Assembly: GCA_963815255.1 (NCBI GenBank)
Contig: CAWFGH010000012.1
Location: 268,121-332,120 of the forward strand
From: an uncultured delta proteobacterium
GTDB lineage: Bacteria; Desulfobacterota; Binatia; Binatales; Binataceae
Length of the DNA stretch: 64,000 bases
Reading direction: 5' to 3'
The notes below the pieces were generated by a model that was not told where the DNA came from, did no database searches, and saw only the letters and a program-made list of their open reading frames with translations. Positions within the stretch are counted from its first letter, which is position 1. Each line of letters begins with the position of its first letter. Shown here one piece after another: positions 25,476 through 34,447 of this stretch. The translations under genes and the position numbers were made by a program.

Positions 25476-25648
25476 GGCGCGCACTATGTCAAGGGCACTG
25501 GCTGAAGTAAATTACGGCTGTGTTAAACCGTACCAAAAGATGCTTGCCTTTATTGGTGTAGCTGACTCGGATCGAACCCTCGCCAGGTTGATGGTGCCCG
25601 TTCGTGGGAAAGCAGAAGTACGCCTCGTTCCGTCTGCCTGGCGGCGGA

Positions 25649-26857
25649 TCATCCGGCCGCGGAAGATATCCCGACCGCCGCTGCGCGCTTCGCGTCGTCT
25701 GCCGCCGATGGTCCCGTGACTTTATAGAGTTTCTGTGAGTTTTCCCAGAGGATCTTGCGCCTCACCGACTCTTCACAGTCAGCGAGGCCGCCCTTGATCC
25801 GGGCGTGTACTTCCTCGCCATAGAGCGAGGTCGGATGCGGAAAGTCGGTCTCGAACAGGATGTTATCGACGCCGATCTTGTCGATCAGGCGGCGCGGCGC
25901 CGTTTGTTCGAACCAGTAACAGGCATAGACGTTGCGCGCGAAATATTCCGACGGCAGCAGATCGAATTCCGGGTGCTCTTCGGCCACGCTATTACCCTGG
26001 AATTGGTAATCCATCGCTTCGAGCACGAAGGGAATCCAGCCGATACCGCTTTCCACCGAGACGAACTTAATTCGCGGATAGCGCGCCAACACTCCGGACA
26101 TCAGCAGGTCGTTTAGTTGAAGGCCGTTGCGTAAGAAGATGTCGACCGCCAGTTCCGCAAACGCCGCCATCTTGCCGTAGGTCGCGACGCGGTTCTTCAG
26201 CAGGCCCTCGGCCATGTCGCCCGAGCCGATATGGAAGCTGATGGGCAGATCCAGCTCGACCGCCACCTCCCACAACGGATTCCAATGCGGATCGCCGAGC
26301 AGTGGCTTACCCCAGTATTGCGGCTCTCCGGTGAAGAGAATTCCCTTGTGGCCCATGGCGGCGCAGCGGCGCACCTCTGTAACCGCGGCGGCAACGTCCC
26401 AGAACGGAATCGACGTGATGGGCAGGAGGCGGCGCGCGTCGGCGGATGCCCACTCGGTCTGCCAATCGTTGTAGATTTGAACGCAGGTGAGCATCAGGTG
26501 AGGGTCATTCAGTTTCAAGAACTGTTGCGCCCCAAAGCCGCCCACGTTCGGATACATGACCATCGCCCAGATACCCATCTCGTCCATGTACTTCAGCCGC
26601 GCCTTGGCGTCGTATGCTCCCGGATGCATCTCCTCGTAGCTCTTGGGCGGATGCTTGAAACTCCCGACCCCGGCTGTAGCGGTCATACCGACGTTCGCGA
26701 GCGGCCGACCGCCTCCCACTAACCACCGCTGGGTCCCATCGGCGCCGGTAATTACCCGCGGCACGCGATCACGCATGGCCGCAGGCGCGCGGCTGGTCCA
26801 CAGGTCGGGCGTTTCGGTTACGTGGGTGTCGGCATCAATGATTGTGTAGCCACTCAT
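25649..26857 (-). CDS. Amidohydrolase family 2 protein
   Basis: IIDADTHVTE, MDEMGIWAMVMYP, QIYNDW, LPISFHIG, FVSVESGIGW, NILFETDFPHP. Confidence 0.9.
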   Translation of the reverse strand: MSGYTIIDADTHVTETPDLWTSRAPAAMRDRVPRVITGADGTQRWLVGGGRPLANVGMTATAGVGSFKHPPKSYEEMHPGAYDAKARLKYMDEMGIWAMVMYPNVGGFGAQQFLKLNDPHLMLTCVQIYNDWQTEWASADARRLLPITSIPFWDVAAAVTEVRRCAAMGHKGILFTGEPQYWGKPLLGDPHWNPLWEVAVELDLPISFHIGSGDMAEGLLKNRVATYGKMAAFAELAVDIFLRNGLQLNDLLMSGVLARYPRIKFVSVESGIGWIPFVLEAMDYQFQGNSVAEEHPEFDLLPSEYFARNVYACYWFEQTAPRRLIDKIGVDNILFETDFPHPTSLYGEEVHARIKGGLADCEESVRRKILWENSQKLYKVTGPSAADDAKRAAAVGISSAAG

Positions 26858-27102
26858 ATCATCCCTCTTTCTAGAATCTCGTATAGCACCAAGCTGCTCT
26901 AGATCGCGAACTGCGGGCGCGCCCGCGCGCCGAGCCTCAGGCCAGCCACCTGTTGAAAGTGTGGACAGTCCTCGGCGGCCCATCTACCGCAGGAATGCCG
27001 CACTCGCTAAGTTACAGTTGATGACGAACGCTGCTGTCGCGGCGCCAGTGGATTCCGCAAACAGGGCGGTCGGAGAATGCTTCGCGTCGGGGGGGAATTG
27101 AG

Positions 27103-27267
27103 ATGGGATCTGCGGTGGAGGGGCTGAAGTTGCGCAGAATGCGCGTCCGCAATGAGATCTCTTTCAGTCGGAGCACGGAGGGAGGAGCAGAAAGGAGCGA
27201 AGATTTAGAGGCGCTCCGCGAGGAACTGCGCAAACTGAGTAAGCAGATCGAGGAGGCCGAACACTAG
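27103..27267 (+). CDS. Possible 54-aa coiled-coil microprotein
   Basis: Manual translation MGSAVEGLKLRRMRVRNEISFSRSTEGGAERSEDLEALREELRKLSKQIEEAEH*; G-rich purine run upstream; below the ORF-track cutoff. Confidence 0.3.
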   Translation: MGSAVEGLKLRRMRVRNEISFSRSTEGGAERSEDLEALREELRKLSKQIEEAEH

Positions 27268-27531
27268 CCACGTGCGCCTCATTGGTTCCTGAGCCGCGCC
27301 CTTGCCTGAGCAGCGGCTTCGCGCAGCGCTATTGAACGGCTTGCGACGTCGGAAGTTCGACCGAAAAGGTCATGATTTCATTGGCGCTGGCCGCTCAGAA
27401 AAACCAACGAGCGGCGGACGACCGCAGGCGGCCAGTAGAGATCGCGGACTCGCACCGTTTCGCAAGAGGCCGGCGCGCTCAAAATTCTCTGCCCATCGGC
27501 GCGCCTCGGCTGGCCAAGGGCGCGCTCAATT

Positions 27532-27726
27532 TCAACAGCAGGCCATTGGCCTCTCTCTCCGGCTGCGCGCCTCAGCGAGCAGATCTTGCACCTCGCTGCC
27601 AACAGGTGGACCGCCTTTAATTGCGGCGCGAGCTGTGAGGGCATGCGCCTCATCGCGCAGGTCGTGCGCTTTCCGTTTGCATTCATGCACTTTGGCCATG
27701 ATCATTGCCGCTTCTGAGTCGGCCAT
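27532..27726 (-). CDS. Possible small helical hypothetical protein
   Basis: 64-aa ORF with GGGGAAAG upstream of the ATG. Confidence 0.3.
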   Translation of the reverse strand: MADSEAAMIMAKVHECKRKAHDLRDEAHALTARAAIKGGPPVGSEVQDLLAEARSRRERPMACC

Positions 27727-27852
27727 GCTTTCCCCCGACTGACGAATAACTAGTGTACTACTAAATCAGTGCTCCATTTTTCTGGCCATTTCGTGGCGTG
27801 ACGTTTGCTTGTCGACCGTCTTGCCATGCGGCACGTTAGCCGCAGCTGTGCT

Positions 27853-28485
27853 CTAATATGAGATCCACAAAGATGTTGCCCTAAATTCTGATAAATCCGG
27901 ATCGGGCAACCTAGCGTAGCATCTCAGCCATGGCGTACCGGCCAGAAGGTCTTCATGAACGGGATTCACGTATATGACAGTAACTGCGCGCGTCCGAGCG
28001 CTTATTCCCTCCCGAAGCCCGTCGAGGACCCGCTTCATCGTTGCGGGCCCGAACGGGTTGAATAAGTAAAACAAATTGCCGCGTGTAAAATCGAACTCTT
28101 CAGCCCTCGAGCATAATATCGATACCGGTGCTTTCTTTCGGCGCACTCGTTGCGCATTGTGCCGCGCCGAGTCGCAGAGACTCTCTACGTATTCTATTCC
28201 AATCGCTTCTGCTATGTCGTAGGTTGCGGCGCAACAGACTACGCGGCCTTTGCCGCAGCCGAGATCCACGAACACATCCGAGGGCTTGAGAGATAGGAAA
28301 GTTAGTATTCTGAAGATCGCTCGGTACGGCACCGTCGCATAATAGTGCTGCTCCGGAGGCATGGATTGCGCGGCGCCTTCTCTCCTGTACGTTCCTCTCG
28401 TCAGTATTCGAAGGCGACGCTCCCAAAGAGCGTTATCTATCTTTCGCAGGACCCTTGCAGTTCGATTTCCAAAAATAGGATGCAT
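27853..28485 (-). CDS. Class I SAM-dependent methyltransferase
   Basis: YYATVPY, VFVDLGCGKGRVV, GIEYVESLCDSARHN, FYLFNPF, IYVNP; lower GC than core genes. Confidence 0.85.
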   Translation of the reverse strand: MHPIFGNRTARVLRKIDNALWERRLRILTRGTYRREGAAQSMPPEQHYYATVPYRAIFRILTFLSLKPSDVFVDLGCGKGRVVCCAATYDIAEAIGIEYVESLCDSARHNAQRVRRKKAPVSILCSRAEEFDFTRGNLFYLFNPFGPATMKRVLDGLREGISARTRAVTVIYVNPVHEDLLAGTPWLRCYARLPDPDLSEFRATSLWISY

Positions 28486-28582
28486 CGGATCTAAGCATCT
28501 GTGCTATTTATTGAACGTTAAACCCGGATATCGGTTTTGGCTCTCGGATTCCAACTGCCGTGTAGGCAGGCCGACCTCTCCG

Positions 28583-28825
28583 TGCACCCTAGTCTCGCGA
28601 CTTGCTGGAAATCCTGTTGTTAGTGAGGAGACAATGCGGGCTCTCGCCGGACACGCTTCACGAGCGATGCTGTCTTGGTACAGTCACATCCGCACGGACG
28701 CAAAACAGGCTGTGACCTCAGCTCTTGATCAGATCGGCGACGCTTGGGAGGTCGCAGATTCTGGAAGAGGCACGGCACAAAATTGGGCACAATCTCATGC
28801 AGTACCCAAGCACACACTCAACTAA
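28583..28825 (+). pseudogene. C-terminal remnant of a tyrosine recombinase/integrase
   Basis: TLVSRLAGNPVVSEETMRALAGHASRAMLSWYSHIRTDAKQAVTSAL retains the box II GH and catalytic Y; N-terminal domains are absent; ends 15 bp from the tRNA 3' end. Confidence 0.75.
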
Positions 28826-28839
28826 CCCCTTGATTTTAT

Positions 28840-28916
28840 TGGTGGAGCTGACGTGGATCGAACACGCGACCTCCTGAATGCCATTCAGGCGCTCTCCCAA
28901 ACTGAGCTACAGCCCC
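28840..28916 (-). tRNA. tRNA-Ala(GGC)
   Basis: GGGGCTG acceptor pairing with CAGCTCC-A-CCA; D arm GCTC/GAGC; anticodon arm CCTGA-ATGGCAT-TCAGG; T loop TTCGATC. Confidence 0.97.
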
Positions 28917-28936: not shown

Positions 28937-28973
28937 CTCAGTTAATCGGATGCTCTCGATTGGGTCAACCTGA
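28937..28973 (-). promoter_or_regulatory. tRNA-Ala promoter; copy 1 of a 37-bp direct repeat
   Basis: Minus strand TTGACC (28968-28963), 17-nt spacer, TTAACT (28945-28940), about 24 nt upstream of the tRNA. Confidence 0.7.
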
Positions 28974-29078
28974 AGCTCGCTGAGCCGCTGAGCTTCTGCC
29001 GCGTTCGGCGCCTCGGCATCCCGATTGCTTCTTTTCCGTCCCCCAGCCATTTTGATCGTCATTCCTGCGAGGCGTCGA

Positions 29079-29882
29079 ATGAGGTCTGAGGTGGAAAATG
29101 CGAGCCTGCTGAGCCCCGATGAACCGCCCGCGTTTCAGATCGTCCGGGAGCAAGGGCGCGCGGCGTATCTCCTCGCTTGCGACCATGGCGGGAATCTACT
29201 GCCGCGCGCGCTCGGCACTTTGGGTCTAAGTCCGCTCGAGTTGAAGCGCCACATCGCGTGGGACATCGGCGCGGCGGGACTCGCGAGAAAACTCGCCGAC
29301 GCGCTCGACGCTTTTCTGATCGTGCAAACCTACTCGCGCCTCGCGATCGACTGCAACCGCAGGCCGCTCTCGTCCACTTCGATCGCGCCGCTGAGCGAGT
29401 CGACCCCGATTCCCGGCAACGAGCATGTCAGGCCGGCAGACGCGGAGGCCCGCCGGCGCGAGATTTTTCAGCCCTACCACGACCGTATCGGCGCCGAACT
29501 TGACGCCCGCATGGTGGTGGGGCGGCCGACCATCCTCGTCGCCGTGCACAGCTTCACGCCGGTGTTCCATGGGGAAAGCCGGCCGTGGCATGTCGGAGTC
29601 CTTTACAACCGGGACGCCCGCCTCGCCGGCATTCTGCTCGAACTGTTTCGCAGCGAGAGCGGGATCGTGGTCGGAGACAATCAACCCTACGCGGTCAGCG
29701 ACGAAGGCGACTACACGATTCCGATCCACGGTGAGCGGCGCTCGATTCCGCATGTCGAGCTCGAAGTACGCCAGGACCTCCTGGCTGACGAGTCCGGCCA
29801 GGCGGCCTGGGCGGATCGGTTGGCGCGCGCGCTGATCAAGGCCGAAGGTCTGATTAACCAGCCTCGGTTACCTCGTCCGTGA
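29079..29882 (+). CDS. N-formylglutamate amidohydrolase family protein
   Basis: LLACDHGGN, RHIAWDIGA, YSRLAIDCNR, FQPYHDRI, VAVHSFTP, GDNQPY, TIPIHG, VELEVRQDL. Confidence 0.9.
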   Translation: MRSEVENASLLSPDEPPAFQIVREQGRAAYLLACDHGGNLLPRALGTLGLSPLELKRHIAWDIGAAGLARKLADALDAFLIVQTYSRLAIDCNRRPLSSTSIAPLSESTPIPGNEHVRPADAEARRREIFQPYHDRIGAELDARMVVGRPTILVAVHSFTPVFHGESRPWHVGVLYNRDARLAGILLELFRSESGIVVGDNQPYAVSDEGDYTIPIHGERRSIPHVELEVRQDLLADESGQAAWADRLARALIKAEGLINQPRLPRP

Positions 29883-30669
29883 AAACTTTGAAGCTGACCA
29901 GAGTACTGGGACCGAAGGTATTGCTGATGGCGACATCGGCGGCGTCGCGACCGCGTGCAATGAGCACCCGCCCGATCCGCGGAATGTTGTTGCGCGGATC
30001 GAACGTGTACCATCGGCCGCCGAGATACGCTTCGAACCATCCGGCGAAGTCCATCGGTCCGTAGGGCGGCGGGATGCCAATATCGCCGAGATAGCCGGCG
30101 CAATAGCGCGCGGGAATGTTCATGCAGCGGCACAACGTGATCGCCAGATGGGCGTAATCGCGGCAGACGCCCCGGCCTTCCTTGAACGCCTGCTCGGCGG
30201 TTTTACTTGGACGGGCGTGCTCATAGCCGAAGGCGATATGCTGATGGACGAAATCGCAGATCGCCTGAACCCGCGCCCAACCGGGCGGAGACCGATCGAA
30301 CAGGTCCCAGGCGGCCTGGGACAAAAGGTCGGTCTCGCAATACCGGCTGCCCAGGAGAAAAACCAGGCTCTCCTCCGGCAGGTCCTCGACCGGGTGCTGA
30401 CAGGCCGAGGGGGCGACTTCGTCGGGTTCGCCGGTGTCGCGGACGACCCCGCTGCTGGCGATTCGAAGGCGCCCCTTGGGAGCCACGATCCTGGTGGACC
30501 AGTTCCCGAATCCGTCGCGATATCCGGTAAGCGGTACCCGCGGGTCGGTCGTCACAAAATCGGGAATGACGATATCGGACGCACGCGTGTAATGGATGTT
30601 CAAGGTCAGAATCATCGGAGTGGGTTGCGGAAAGTCGTAGATCAGCTCGTAGCCGACGCGGATTTGCAT
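29854..30669 (-). CDS. Transglutaminase-like protein
   Basis: FLLGSRYCETD, GVCRDYAHLAITLCR, PARYCAGYLGD, DFAGWFE, FDPRNN.PRIGR, RGRDAADV. Confidence 0.9.
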   Translation of the reverse strand: MQIRVGYELIYDFPQPTPMILTLNIHYTRASDIVIPDFVTTDPRVPLTGYRDGFGNWSTRIVAPKGRLRIASSGVVRDTGEPDEVAPSACQHPVEDLPEESLVFLLGSRYCETDLLSQAAWDLFDRSPPGWARVQAICDFVHQHIAFGYEHARPSKTAEQAFKEGRGVCRDYAHLAITLCRCMNIPARYCAGYLGDIGIPPPYGPMDFAGWFEAYLGGRWYTFDPRNNIPRIGRVLIARGRDAADVAISNTFGPSTLVSFKVFTDEVTEAG

Positions 30670-30684
30670 ATGCTCAGGTCCTCT

Positions 30685-31647
30685 TTATTGCCGCAGCCCC
30701 GTGAGCGCCGGGTCCGTGGCGGAAAATTCCTGGAGCCCCTTCTCGCCCTGCGACGGTTCCGTTGATGAACGGGTCTCGTCGAGAACGCTTACGGCGACCT
30801 CCATGCCCAGGAAAGCCGCCCGCCTGCCGATAAAGGTTCCCCAAAGCGGCAGCACTTGCGCGTGGTCCCATGCCACCGCGACGCGGATTAGATTGTGGTT
30901 GCCGACGATCTTGTTGGTCGGATCGAAATCGACCCATCCCATCCCTGGAAGGTAAACCTGCAGCCACGCGTGGGTCGCGCCCCGCCCGACGGCGAGGCGC
31001 GGATCGGCGTCGGGTAAGAAGATATAGCCGCTCACGAACCTGGCGGCCATCCCGAGCGACCGGACGCCCTCGATCATCAAGAGAGCAAAATCACGGCAGG
31101 TCCCATATCCGCGTTGGAGGGTGTCGCTTGGGGTCTGCACGCCGCGCTCGACGCGGCGCCGGTACTCGAATTGCTGGTTGATCCCCACGGTCATCGATCG
31201 AAGCAAGGCCATCGTGTCCATCGAGCCCGATGCGCCGGACGAGGCCAGAAAGCCGGTTGCCCATTGCCGCACGTCCTCGGCCGGATAGCCTCGCTCCAGT
31301 CCTCGCGCGAGATCCGCGCGCTCTTCGCTGGAATAGGCAAACGGATAGGTTCTTGCCGCGGGTTCGAGCCGATATTCCGGAGTAACCGGCTCGATGTGCT
31401 CAAGCGTGACGACGCTCTCGAACCGAAGCTCGGTCGTCTGCCCGGTAAACGTCGCCACCGCGACCGAGTTATCGAAAACGTCGTGAGTCCAATGAAGGTC
31501 CGCCGGTTGCGGCATGATCGCGAGGCTGCTCTTGATCAGCCGCAAATCATAGCTCGCCCGCGGCTGAAACATCCATCGATGCTTGCCCAATCCGACCGGT
31601 TCCGAATAACGATACACGGTGACGTGCCTTACGGTAAAAAGGCGCAT
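30685..31647 (-). CDS. Transglutaminase-like protein with N-terminal Bact_transglu_N domain
   Basis: VRHVTVYRYSEPV, DVFDNSVA, GTCRDFALLM, ARFVSGY, ATHAWLQVYLPGMGWVDFDPTN. Confidence 0.9.
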   Translation of the reverse strand: MRLFTVRHVTVYRYSEPVGLGKHRWMFQPRASYDLRLIKSSLAIMPQPADLHWTHDVFDNSVAVATFTGQTTELRFESVVTLEHIEPVTPEYRLEPAARTYPFAYSSEERADLARGLERGYPAEDVRQWATGFLASSGASGSMDTMALLRSMTVGINQQFEYRRRVERGVQTPSDTLQRGYGTCRDFALLMIEGVRSLGMAARFVSGYIFLPDADPRLAVGRGATHAWLQVYLPGMGWVDFDPTNKIVGNHNLIRVAVAWDHAQVLPLWGTFIGRRAAFLGMEVAVSVLDETRSSTEPSQGEKGLQEFSATDPALTGLRQ

Positions 31648-31700
31648 GCAGGTTGCCTCGGCGGTCGTATCGATTGAGGAACAACGCGGGAGGGACACTT

Positions 31701-31737
31701 CTCAGTTAATCGGAAGCTGCCGGCCGGGTCAATCTGA
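31701..31737 (-). promoter_or_regulatory. Copy 2 of the 37-bp repeat (TTGACC-N17-TTAACT) upstream of the transglutaminase genes
   Basis: CTCAGTTAATCGGAAGCTGCCGGCCGGGTCAATCTGA; 30 of 37 positions identical to 28937-28973. Confidence 0.7.
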
Positions 31738-31837: not shown

Positions 31838-33538
31838 TCAATCGTGGGTGCGTCCGATCAGCTCGCGCGCCGCGCGGCGAAACTTGTCGGTGACTTCGGC
31901 GCCGCCGAGCATCCGCGCGATCTCTTCGATCCGCTCAGCTTGCACCAGCGCGCTCACGCGGCTGCGGGTCGCGCCGCGCCGTTCCTCTTTTTCGATCAGG
32001 AAATGAGTGTCGGCGAAGGCGGCGACCTGCGGCAGATGGGTCACGCACAGCACCTGATGAAAGCGCGCGAGTTCCTTGAGCTTGCGTCCGACGACCTGGG
32101 CGACCGCGCCGCCGACGCCCGCGTCGACCTCGTCGAAGATCATCGTGGCGACGCCGCGCCGCTGCGCCTCCAGGCGCTTGAGCGCGAGCATCACGCGCGA
32201 GAGCTCGCCGCCCGAGGCGATGCGCGCGAGCGCCATCGGCGGCTGCCCGAGGTTGGGCGAGAGCATGAATTCGATCGCGTCCGCGCCGCCCGGCCCGAGC
32301 GTCATCCGGTTATGCTCGAACGCGGGTTCCGACTTTTCCAGCGGCGCGAAGCGCGCCTCGAACACCGGCGCGCGCATCCCCAGCGTCTTGAGCTCGGTCT
32401 CCATCCGGCGCTTGAGCTCAGCCGCCGCGCTCTGGCGCCGCGCGCTGAGCTCGGCGCCCATCCGCGCGAGATTATCGAGCGCGTCGCGGAGCTCGGCTTC
32501 GGCCGCGGCGCGCGAGTCGGACACCCGCTCGAGCTCGGAAACCTCGGCGCGCGAGCGCTCCAGAGTTTCGAGCACGCTCTGCAGCGTGCCGCCATACTTG
32601 CGCTTGAGCCGGGTCAGTTCGGCCATCCGCGTTTCGATCTCTTCGAGGCGCGCCGGGTCGGCCTCGATTCGCGCGGCGTAATCGCGCAGCGTATGCGCGG
32701 CCTCCTCCAGGCCAAGACGCGCCGAGCTGATCAGTTCGAGCGCGTCCTTGAGCTTGGGATCGATCACCGCCGCCTCGCCGACCCGGGTCTCGGCGCGCGC
32801 GACCGCGTCGAGCGCCGCGGCGCTCTCGCCCGAGAGCATCTGCTCGGCGTCAGTGGCGGCGGCGCCCAGGCGCGCGGCGTTGGCCAGTACCGTGCGCTCG
32901 GCCGCCAGTTGCTCGTCCTCGCCGGGCGTAAGCCCGGCGTGCTCGAGCTCGGCGATGCGGAAGCGCGCGAGCTCGAGCTGCTCCGCGCGGGTGCGCTCGC
33001 GCTCGCGCAGCTCGGCGGCGCGAGCGCGCGCTTCGGCCGTCGCGCGGTACGCCGCGCCGTACTGCTCGAGCGTCGCGTCGAGCGCGGCGTGCCGGTCCAG
33101 GAGCTGGAGATGGCTCTCGGAGCGGAGCAGCGTCTGATGCTCGTGCTGGCCGTAGACCTGGACCAGGCCCTGGCCCATCCGCGCCAGGGTCTGCACGGTA
33201 GCCATCTCGCCGTTGATGTAGGCGCGCGAACGACCGCCATCGGCGGCGAGCGTGCGGCGGATGAGCAACTCGCGCGGGGCGGATTCGGCGAACTGCTGGG
33301 TGCCCTCGGGCAGCGGCGCCTCGCCCTCGAGCTCGAACATTCCTTCGACGACGGCTTCATTCTGTCCGGCGCGGATCATGTCGGGCGAGGCGCGGCCGCC
33401 GAGCAGCAGCCCGAGCGCGGTCATGATGATGGTCTTGCCGGCGCCGGTCTCGCCCGAGAGCACGTTGAAGCCGGGGCCGAAATAAAGCGCTGCGCCCTCG
33501 ATGATGGCGAAGTTGCGGATGCGCAGTTCGACCAGCAT
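31838..33538 (-). CDS. recN: DNA repair protein RecN
   Basis: LSGETGAGKT, GQHEHQ, long coiled coil, IASGGELSRVMLAL, IFDEVDAGVGG, LCVTHLPQVA. Confidence 0.97.
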   Translation of the reverse strand: MLVELRIRNFAIIEGAALYFGPGFNVLSGETGAGKTIIMTALGLLLGGRASPDMIRAGQNEAVVEGMFELEGEAPLPEGTQQFAESAPRELLIRRTLAADGGRSRAYINGEMATVQTLARMGQGLVQVYGQHEHQTLLRSESHLQLLDRHAALDATLEQYGAAYRATAEARARAAELRERERTRAEQLELARFRIAELEHAGLTPGEDEQLAAERTVLANAARLGAAATDAEQMLSGESAAALDAVARAETRVGEAAVIDPKLKDALELISSARLGLEEAAHTLRDYAARIEADPARLEEIETRMAELTRLKRKYGGTLQSVLETLERSRAEVSELERVSDSRAAAEAELRDALDNLARMGAELSARRQSAAAELKRRMETELKTLGMRAPVFEARFAPLEKSEPAFEHNRMTLGPGGADAIEFMLSPNLGQPPMALARIASGGELSRVMLALKRLEAQRRGVATMIFDEVDAGVGGAVAQVVGRKLKELARFHQVLCVTHLPQVAAFADTHFLIEKEERRGATRSRVSALVQAERIEEIARMLGGAEVTDKFRRAARELIGRTHD

Positions 33539-33553: not shown

Positions 33554-34447
33554 TCAGCCCCAGCGCAACTTGTTGCGCCAGATTTCGAAATAGGAGTGCG
33601 ACGATCGCACGAGCACCACCGGGTTTTTGCCGCGCCGCACGCGCAGGGTGTCGTTGCTCGCGATGCGCGCGGTTTGCTGACCGTCCACCGTCAGCATCGC
33701 GCCGTTGTCGTCGGTCTTGACCCGCACCTCGATCTCGAACGAATCGGGCAGCACCACCGGACGATTGCTCAGCGTGTGCGGGCAAATCGGCGCGAGCACC
33801 ACGACGTCGAGCGTCGGGTACACGATCGGCCCGCCGGCGCTGAGCGCGTATGCGGTGGAACCGGTCGGCGTCGCGATAATCAGGCCGTCGGCGCGGTAGG
33901 AGCAGAAGCGCTCGCCGCTTGCGACCACGTTGAGCTCGAGCATCCGGCCGAGCGCGCGCTTGTTGATCACGACGTCGTTGAGCGCACGGAAGATCTCGCG
34001 ATCGGCCGTGCGCGCGCCCGCGGGATGCGCTTCGACGGCCGCCTCCAGCGTGATGCGGCGATCGACCTCGTAATCGCCGGCCAGCACGCGGGCCAGCGTC
34101 GCCTGCGCCTCCTCGGTGGTGATCTCGGTCAGAAAGCCAAGGCCGCCGAGGTTGATGCCGAGGATCGGCGTTTCGCGCTCGCCGACCAGCCGCGCGATGC
34201 TGAGCAGCGTGCCGTCGCCGCCGAGCACCACGATAAGGTCCGCGCGCAGCGCCAGTTGCTCGCGCTCGACCGCTTCGGCGCCGAGTTGCGGGGCGACCTC
34301 GGGCTCGGCGAGCGTGGTCAGATGGCGCGAGCGCAGCCATCCCGTGAGCACGTGCGCGATCGTGATCGCGCGCGGGCGCTCGTGCCGCAGGACCATCCCC
34401 ACCGTCTTTAGCGAATGCTTTACTACTTTCGCGTTCACGGACTTCAC
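33554..34447 (-). CDS. nadK: NAD kinase
   Basis: LGGDGTLL, GINLGGLGFL, ALNDVV, DGLIIATPTGSTAYALSAGG, PICPH. Confidence 0.95.
   Translation of the reverse strand: MKSVNAKVVKHSLKTVGMVLRHERPRAITIAHVLTGWLRSRHLTTLAEPEVAPQLGAEAVEREQLALRADLIVVLGGDGTLLSIARLVGERETPILGINLGGLGFLTEITTEEAQATLARVLAGDYEVDRRITLEAAVEAHPAGARTADREIFRALNDVVINKRALGRMLELNVVASGERFCSYRADGLIIATPTGSTAYALSAGGPIVYPTLDVVVLAPICPHTLSNRPVVLPDSFEIEVRVKTDDNGAMLTVDGQQTARIASNDTLRVRRGKNPVVLVRSSHSYFEIWRNKLRWG

Follow-up and report, generated by a model that had tools for sequence, protein, structure and literature searches.

A three-gene transglutaminase cassette bracketed by a repeated promoter-like sequence in the recN/tRNA-Ala spacer of Binataceae

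Structure of the locus

The DNA analyzed here (the window) is a 64-kb stretch from an uncultured delta proteobacterium of the Binataceae, whose 4.38-Mb assembly is referred to as G000, and all positions are those of the window. It contains a 2.8-kb insert in which exactly three genes, encoding two transglutaminase-like proteins (TGase1 and TGase2) and one protein of the N-formylglutamate amidohydrolase-like family (FGase), lie between two copies of a 37-nt direct repeat (28937-28973 and 31701-31737; 30/37 positions identical). Read on the minus strand, each copy has the form TCAG-r-TTGACC-N17-TTAACT-GA, and the longest identical run between them is 14 bases. The repeat, its TTGACC-N17-TTAACT reading and the three enclosed genes had already been noticed in a first-pass annotation of the sequence and were all confirmed in place.

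The recN-proximal copy (copy 2, P_L; 31701-31737, minus strand) has its -35 element TTGACC at 31727-31732 and, after a 17-nt spacer, a -10-like TTAACT at 31704-31709. It lies 105 nt downstream of the recN stop (31838) and 56 nt upstream of the TGase1 ATG (31647). The tRNA-proximal copy (copy 1, P_R; 28937-28973, minus strand; -35 at 28963-28968, -10-like element at 28940-28945) stands 23 nt upstream of a tRNA-Ala(GGC) gene (28840-28916, minus strand; ARAGORN, Rfam tRNA score of 60.5 bits). Of three traits of tRNA-gene (tDNA) islands of the tyrosine-integrase type that were compared, flanking direct repeats together with an intact target tRNA-Ala(GGC) are the one that the cassette has. On the other side, recN (31838-33538, minus strand) is the conserved left neighbour of the site, and together with the NAD kinase gene NADK (33554-34447, minus strand) it serves as the synteny anchor in all relatives.

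TGase1 (30685-31647, minus strand; 320 amino acids) matches PF08379 (Bact_transglu_N, 9e-21) and PF01841 (Transglut_core, 4e-18), and TGase2 (29854-30669, minus strand; 271 amino acids) is a second Transglut_core protein (PF01841 scores of 66 and 71 bits, respectively, with a gathering cut-off of 23). Reading of the sequences revealed that the Cys, His and Asp motifs are all present in TGase1. In TGase2 the Cys motif (GRGVCRDYAHL) and the Asp (FDP) are retained, but Ala/Gly occupies the position that corresponds to the catalytic His of TGase1; TGase2 may rely on a different His or act as a partner without catalytic activity. The FGase gene (29079-29882, plus strand) is convergent with TGase2, with a 29-nt overlap, and divergent from the tRNA promoter. 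Its product matches PF05013 (1.4e-44, 153 bits) and scores 29.6 bits against the HutG equivalog TIGR02017, far below the cut-off of 278.75; it can be assigned to the broader PF05013 family but not to the HutG equivalog. The starts of FGase (ATG 29079) and TGase1 (ATG 31647) were both set by conservation in relatives. The only family hits in the cassette were Transglut_core (two genes) and FGase, with no integrase or recombinase among them, and no integrase remnant was found next to the cassette.

Between the -10-like element of copy 2 and the TGase1 ATG (31648-31703, minus strand), the first ~23 nt resemble the tRNA leader, although not significantly, and the last ~33 nt (31648-31680) form a conserved 5' untranslated region (UTR), with GAGG 9 nt before the ATG. 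This 5' UTR is shared with cassettes at another locus in two sister species, G001 and G002. The spacer of ~100 nt from the FGase start to copy 1 (28974-29078, no strand assigned) carries the motif GGAAAAGAAGCAATCGGGA (minus strand) in 5/5 cassette genomes. Both this spacer and the 23 nt that follow the -10-like element of copy 2 are restricted to the arrangement at the recN site. The G+C content is ~63% in the cassette, equal to the genome mean (62.8%), and 70-75% in recN and NADK, so that the cassette is not compositionally foreign and it is the adjoining housekeeping genes that are unusually G+C-rich.

The recN/tRNA-Ala site in relatives and the state of the two promoter copies

The sequence that follows recN was compared in 20 relatives. 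Seven species of the same genus (G001, G002, G004, G007, G010, G011 and G014) have an empty site, with recN, one promoter copy and tRNA-Ala(GGC) in a recN-tRNA-Ala spacer of 100-150 nt, and the core-motif search described below suggests that the site of G008 is probably empty too. Two other Binataceae genera (G019 and G021) show the same adjacency of recN and tRNA-Ala with a diverged promoter, and over all empty sites, those of other genera included, recN, promoter and tRNA-Ala lie within 100-320 nt. The occupied sites are those of five species of uncultured soil bacteria in this genus (G000, G003, G016, G005 and G015), in which the same three genes stand between two promoter copies. G014 is the only cassette-less relative with two copies, and there the second promoter-plus-tRNA unit flanks an unrelated island. 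Different inserts are present in the recN-tRNA-Ala spacer of G009 and G012, and this spacer is a hot spot for gene acquisition in general. The single-copy empty sites in the same genus and in two other genera support recN-promoter-tRNA-Ala as the ancestral order, as the first-pass annotation had proposed, and the comparison of these sequences supports the cassette as a derived insertion accompanied by a second promoter copy.

The copy numbers point the same way. The core motif TTGACC-N9-GCTTCCGATTAACTGA, searched with up to 2 mismatches in 151 genomes of the family, is confined to the genus of G000 and occurs once per genome, except that it occurs twice in G000, G003, G005, G015 and G016, which are the cassette genomes; this ties the insertion to the second copy, as had been predicted. 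Allowing up to 10 mismatches, no third copy of the 37-mer was found in the G000 assembly, and the repeat is therefore not a sequence found at many unrelated promoters. A shuffle test of the repeat used a pattern drawn from the two copies themselves and is hence circular. Two independent promoters could have become alike through the host consensus, and 12 of the 30 matching positions are indeed the two hexamers. However, the two copies also agree at non-consensus bases (TCAG ahead of the -35, GCTTCCGA ahead of the -10 and GA after it), the motif is at no other promoter in G000 or the 151 relatives, and its copy number tracks the cassette perfectly. Convergence by chance is thus effectively refuted by the genome-wide and 151-genome searches.

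Copy 1 is the orthologue of the single promoter in the empty-site relatives. Its position 23 nt upstream of the tRNA and its invariance throughout the genus argue that it is the tRNA-Ala promoter; its -35 element TTGACC matches the sigma-70 consensus at 5/6 positions. The other tRNA genes of G000 have different promoters, which read TTGAC-N16/17-TAnnnT.

For copy 2, the two deep cassette clades were compared. The 36-nt core is 83-92% identical between the clades and the leader plus 5' UTR 72-86%, while the 60 nt upstream are only ~33% identical. The -35, the -10 and the bases beside them are invariant save for one change in the -10 of G015; all other changes fall in the spacer (3-5 of ~10 positions changed) or at the outer edge. 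A conserved core and UTR beside a randomised upstream flank form the pattern expected of purifying selection on the promoter and the 5' UTR. Judged from this conservation, copy 2 is likely a promoter co-opted for the TGase1-TGase2 operon, and it would accordingly be active; the first-pass proposal that the cargo was placed under a stable-RNA promoter thus seems likely to hold.

Origin and age of the cassette

The same three genes were also detected at a different locus in the sister species G001 and G002, as well as in G017 and in a metagenome-assembled genome (MAG), L059. The initial picture of a naive element arriving from outside is therefore not exactly right. The promoter motif is absent from this second locus of the cassette. 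In G001 and G002 the cassette has a gene for a ZIP-like membrane protein on one side and backbone genes on the other, and in G000, G014 and G015 these backbone genes lie 3' of tRNA-Ala (window 23060-21264 and 12175-7911). Homology between the two cassette loci spans the window from 31680 to 29075. A decayed promoter copy upstream of the G001/G002 cassette looked plausible by eye but was not significant (p 0.008-0.1) and was dropped as a candidate. G002 has a pair of 19-nt AT-rich direct repeats (TCTCATTAgTAAGTTGcAT) upstream of FGase.

In the TGase1 tree the recN-site copies of all five genomes group in a single clade (SH-like approximate likelihood ratio test, SH-aLRT, 84), with those of G001/G002, G017 and L059 outside it. 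The Binataceae group is sister to Alphaproteobacteria bacterium UBA7691 plus Ferrovibrio, and the surrounding assemblage is largely alphaproteobacterial, including one MAG labelled Myxococcota. UBA7691 and Ferrovibrio sp. have the trio in identical order and orientation, at 68-79% identity on the protein level. Dozens of other genomes (Alphaproteobacteria, Acidobacteriota) carry the trio or the TGase pair, but only in the five Binataceae species does the trio stand behind a tRNA promoter copy. The tree and the gene order shared with Alphaproteobacteria suggest that the Binataceae acquired the module from Alphaproteobacteria-like donors and that it later moved once into the recN/tRNA spacer.

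The synonymous divergence (dS) between G000 and G003 is 0.19-0.25 for the cassette and 0.13-0.16 for recN/NADK, and between G000 and G005 the values are 0.50-0.58 and 0.34-0.38. Since the dS of the cassette scales with that of recN/NADK in the same species pairs, the insertion is old, and cassette and hosts have diverged together. All recN-proximal promoter copies have A at position 5, while the tRNA-proximal and empty-site copies have G, except in the basal G007. A single origin of the recN-site cassette is what we infer from these sequences.

Entry into the spacer

Younger inserts at the same spacer bear on how the cassette entered. In G003, the closest relative (L031 2766-5690), recN and the cassette are separated by a 2.9-kb insert with a 432-amino-acid open reading frame (ORF), an Xre antitoxin gene and a RES toxin gene. 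The last 245 nt of recN with its stop region are duplicated around this insert (99% identical). The insert also holds a foreign spacer and a third promoter copy of foreign type, which is truncated after TTCCGAT and whose own spacer resembles that of G009. One crossover of the chromosome with a circle that carried recN homology would be expected to yield this structure. In Campbell-type single crossovers, as in the specialised transducing lambda heterogenotes, the homologous segment ends up directly duplicated on either side of the insert, and the toxin-antitoxin insert of G003 has that structure.

Overall, an old, fixed insertion with promoter co-option and homology-assisted (Campbell-type) entry explains the locus best, with a probability that we put at about 0.6. 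A module already present in the Binataceae would have moved once into the 100-150-nt recN/tRNA-Ala spacer in an ancestor of the five species. Circular or linear DNA with a copy of the promoter region beside the cassette may have recombined with the resident locus by a Campbell-type single crossover, the same process as in the more recent G003 insertion and one in which no dedicated 5' att recombinase would take part. Two copies of the tRNA promoter would have been left behind, the tRNA-proximal one still driving the tRNA and the recN-proximal one co-opted for TGase1-TGase2 and kept by selection, while FGase would be read from a promoter of its own on the opposite strand.

Several observations weigh against this reading. 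No donor configuration with a promoter copy beside the cassette was found. A sigma-70 consensus scan called neither copy, since TTAACT at N17 lacks A2 and TAACTG at N18 lacks T6, and Rfam revealed no known RNA element in the TGase1 5' UTR. Homology of the flanks beyond the 37-mer is suggestive but falls short of significance. The leaders after the -10 can be aligned in register (TCCCTCC-CGCG versus TCTCTCCACGCG), and a register scan gave a weak peak at shift 0 (0.42, against 0.15-0.39), but the unconstrained alignment was not significant (p 0.1-0.6), and the DNA upstream of copy 1 showed borderline similarity to the recN 3' end plus spacer (p 0.05-0.37). The original duplicated unit can no longer be read because the orthologous flanks are themselves randomised. 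The junction between cassette and backbone in G001/G002 fits no simple model, and no single rearrangement linking the two loci could be reconstructed. Finally, the recN/NADK tree (2.6 kb) does not resolve the genus crown, and monophyly of the five cassette genomes was marginally rejected (approximately unbiased (AU) test, p = 0.042), so that later loss, or lateral replacement by homologous recombination, has to be invoked.

The last result would also fit a history in which the occupied state is ancestral for the genus crown and the empty sites arose by deletion between the promoter copies. The two cassette clades are paraphyletic in the maximum-likelihood recN/NADK tree, and deletion between direct repeats would restore a single copy of ancestral appearance. 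Against this stand the basal G007 and G012 and the two other genera, all without the cassette at this site, and the cassette tree, in which the recN-site copies are a derived clade. Such a reversal, which we regard as quite improbable, would alter only the timing, and the insertion with promoter duplication would stand.

The main rival to Campbell-type entry is suggested by two further genomes. In G014 (L037), an island containing AAA and MazG genes and a truncated integrase lies between two complete promoter-plus-tRNA-Ala units. The duplicated segment begins 18 nt before the recN stop, and the second tRNA copy has a T-arm and a 3' flank of foreign type. In G009 (L049), all that is left of the first unit is the promoter's -35 half, joined to tRNA positions 54-77 and the ancestral downstream flank; the same Xre/RES pair as in G003 follows, and then a complete second promoter-tRNA unit. 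Read as successive stages, with the first copy reduced in G009 ahead of cargo and a fresh promoter-tRNA unit, these loci suggest that the cassette could have been part of an island that entered at the usual 3' side of tRNA-Ala and that brought in or created a second promoter-plus-tRNA unit at its far end, and that the first tRNA and the remainder of the island were deleted later, leaving recN-promoter-cassette-promoter-tRNA. The cassettes of G001 and G002, which adjoin backbone genes from the 3' side of the tRNA, would agree with such a route. It needs at least 2 further deletions, however, one of them ending near tRNA position +1, and no integrase remnant adjoins the cassette. Searches of both cassette edges in the five genomes with tRNA-Ala and its 3' flank as queries detected no tRNA remnant, either as an 18-mer (up to 2 mismatches) or as a local alignment scoring above shuffles. 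We consider decay from a two-copy intermediate unlikely, although it retains a real share of the probability.

The first-pass annotation had favoured dedicated entry at a 5' att site. In that case a recombinase encoded elsewhere would have acted site-specifically in the tRNA promoter, and the promoter copy brought in would have restored tRNA expression. The cargo does lie 5' of the tRNA and between direct repeats, the recN-proximal copies share one variant, and the spacers of the tRNA-proximal copies look lineage-specific. Displacement of a 5' tDNA fragment is known from a minority of islands, counted as 159 against 3760 in Islander (PMC4383910), so that a genuine entry from the 5' side would still belong, as a variant, to a class already described. 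As in those islands, the cargo lies 5' of an intact tRNA gene between direct repeats; the tRNA has to receive its promoter from the insert, into which the displaced promoter of the chromosome reads. The cassette differs from them in that the promoter alone is duplicated, with no tRNA sequence and no integrase, and in that it is 2.8 kb long and carries three metabolic genes between old, diverged repeats (30/37). The proposal of a dedicated 5' entry fares poorly, as no recombinase was found in or next to the cassette and no displaced tRNA 5' fragment at its edges; the repeats share at most 14 consecutive identical bases and hence no maintained att core, and the cassette also exists at a second locus that lacks the promoter motif. 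Moreover, three other inserts at this spacer (G003, G009 and G014) have duplications with different end points in every case, which makes a fixed att core less likely and favours either homology-driven insertion or decay of duplicated units. We therefore regard site-specific entry as improbable.

The Campbell-type entry that we prefer differs from textbook integration in that the extent of the original duplication around the cassette is no longer readable and the donor circle is hypothetical. Integrons offer another comparison. There, the Pc promoter and attI capture promoterless cassettes. The recN/tRNA spacer resembles an integron in that a resident strong promoter ends up driving captured genes and in that the cargo differs by species, but it has no integrase, attC, attI or array, and the promoter has several of the other inserts upstream of it or on the strand opposite to its own. 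A bolder view is that the spacer is a recurrent, recombinase-free capture platform into which promoter-bearing circles integrate repeatedly (the TGase cassette, the Xre/RES pair, the AAA/MazG island). We hold this to be very improbable; if it were true, cargo downstream of a promoter copy would come under a stable-RNA promoter, and the spacer would be a functional integron analogue built on a tRNA promoter.

If copy 2 works as its conservation suggests, the locus is a clean natural example of an accessory operon gaining a ready-made strong promoter while an essential tRNA keeps its own, with empty sites, occupied sites and younger look-alike events all within one genus. It indicates that gene gain can concentrate on the 5' side of a tRNA gene as well as in the classical 3' att region and that duplications there need not imply a site-specific recombinase. 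The promoter capture is neat rather than revolutionary, and it opens no long-standing question.

Other, unrelated cargo was observed in the recN-tRNA spacers of further lineages, where it lies between recN and the one tRNA promoter. It consists of a sulfatase gene in G012, two small ORFs in G020, and an alpha/beta-hydrolase-like ORF plus an Amidohydro_2 homologue in G022.

In the window, the same tRNA is also adjoined on its 3' side by the remnant of a classical island (25578-28839). Its far end is marked by a displaced tRNA-Ala 3' fragment in the same orientation (25543-25577, minus strand), which covers the T-arm to the 3' end plus 10 nt and is identical at 30/35 positions. The G+C content of the remnant falls to ~53% over 27600-28800, and among its genes are a DOT1/SAM-methyltransferase-like one (27853-28485), one of the Amidohydro_2 family (25649-26983) and, next to the tRNA 3' end, an ORF that matched no family (28361-28825). 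The last was tried as a candidate integrase C-terminus and rejected, having no Pfam hit and no BLASTP similarity to the integrase fragment of G014. In G003, a counterpart of the C-terminus of its product, 58% identical, is encoded immediately 3' of the tRNA.

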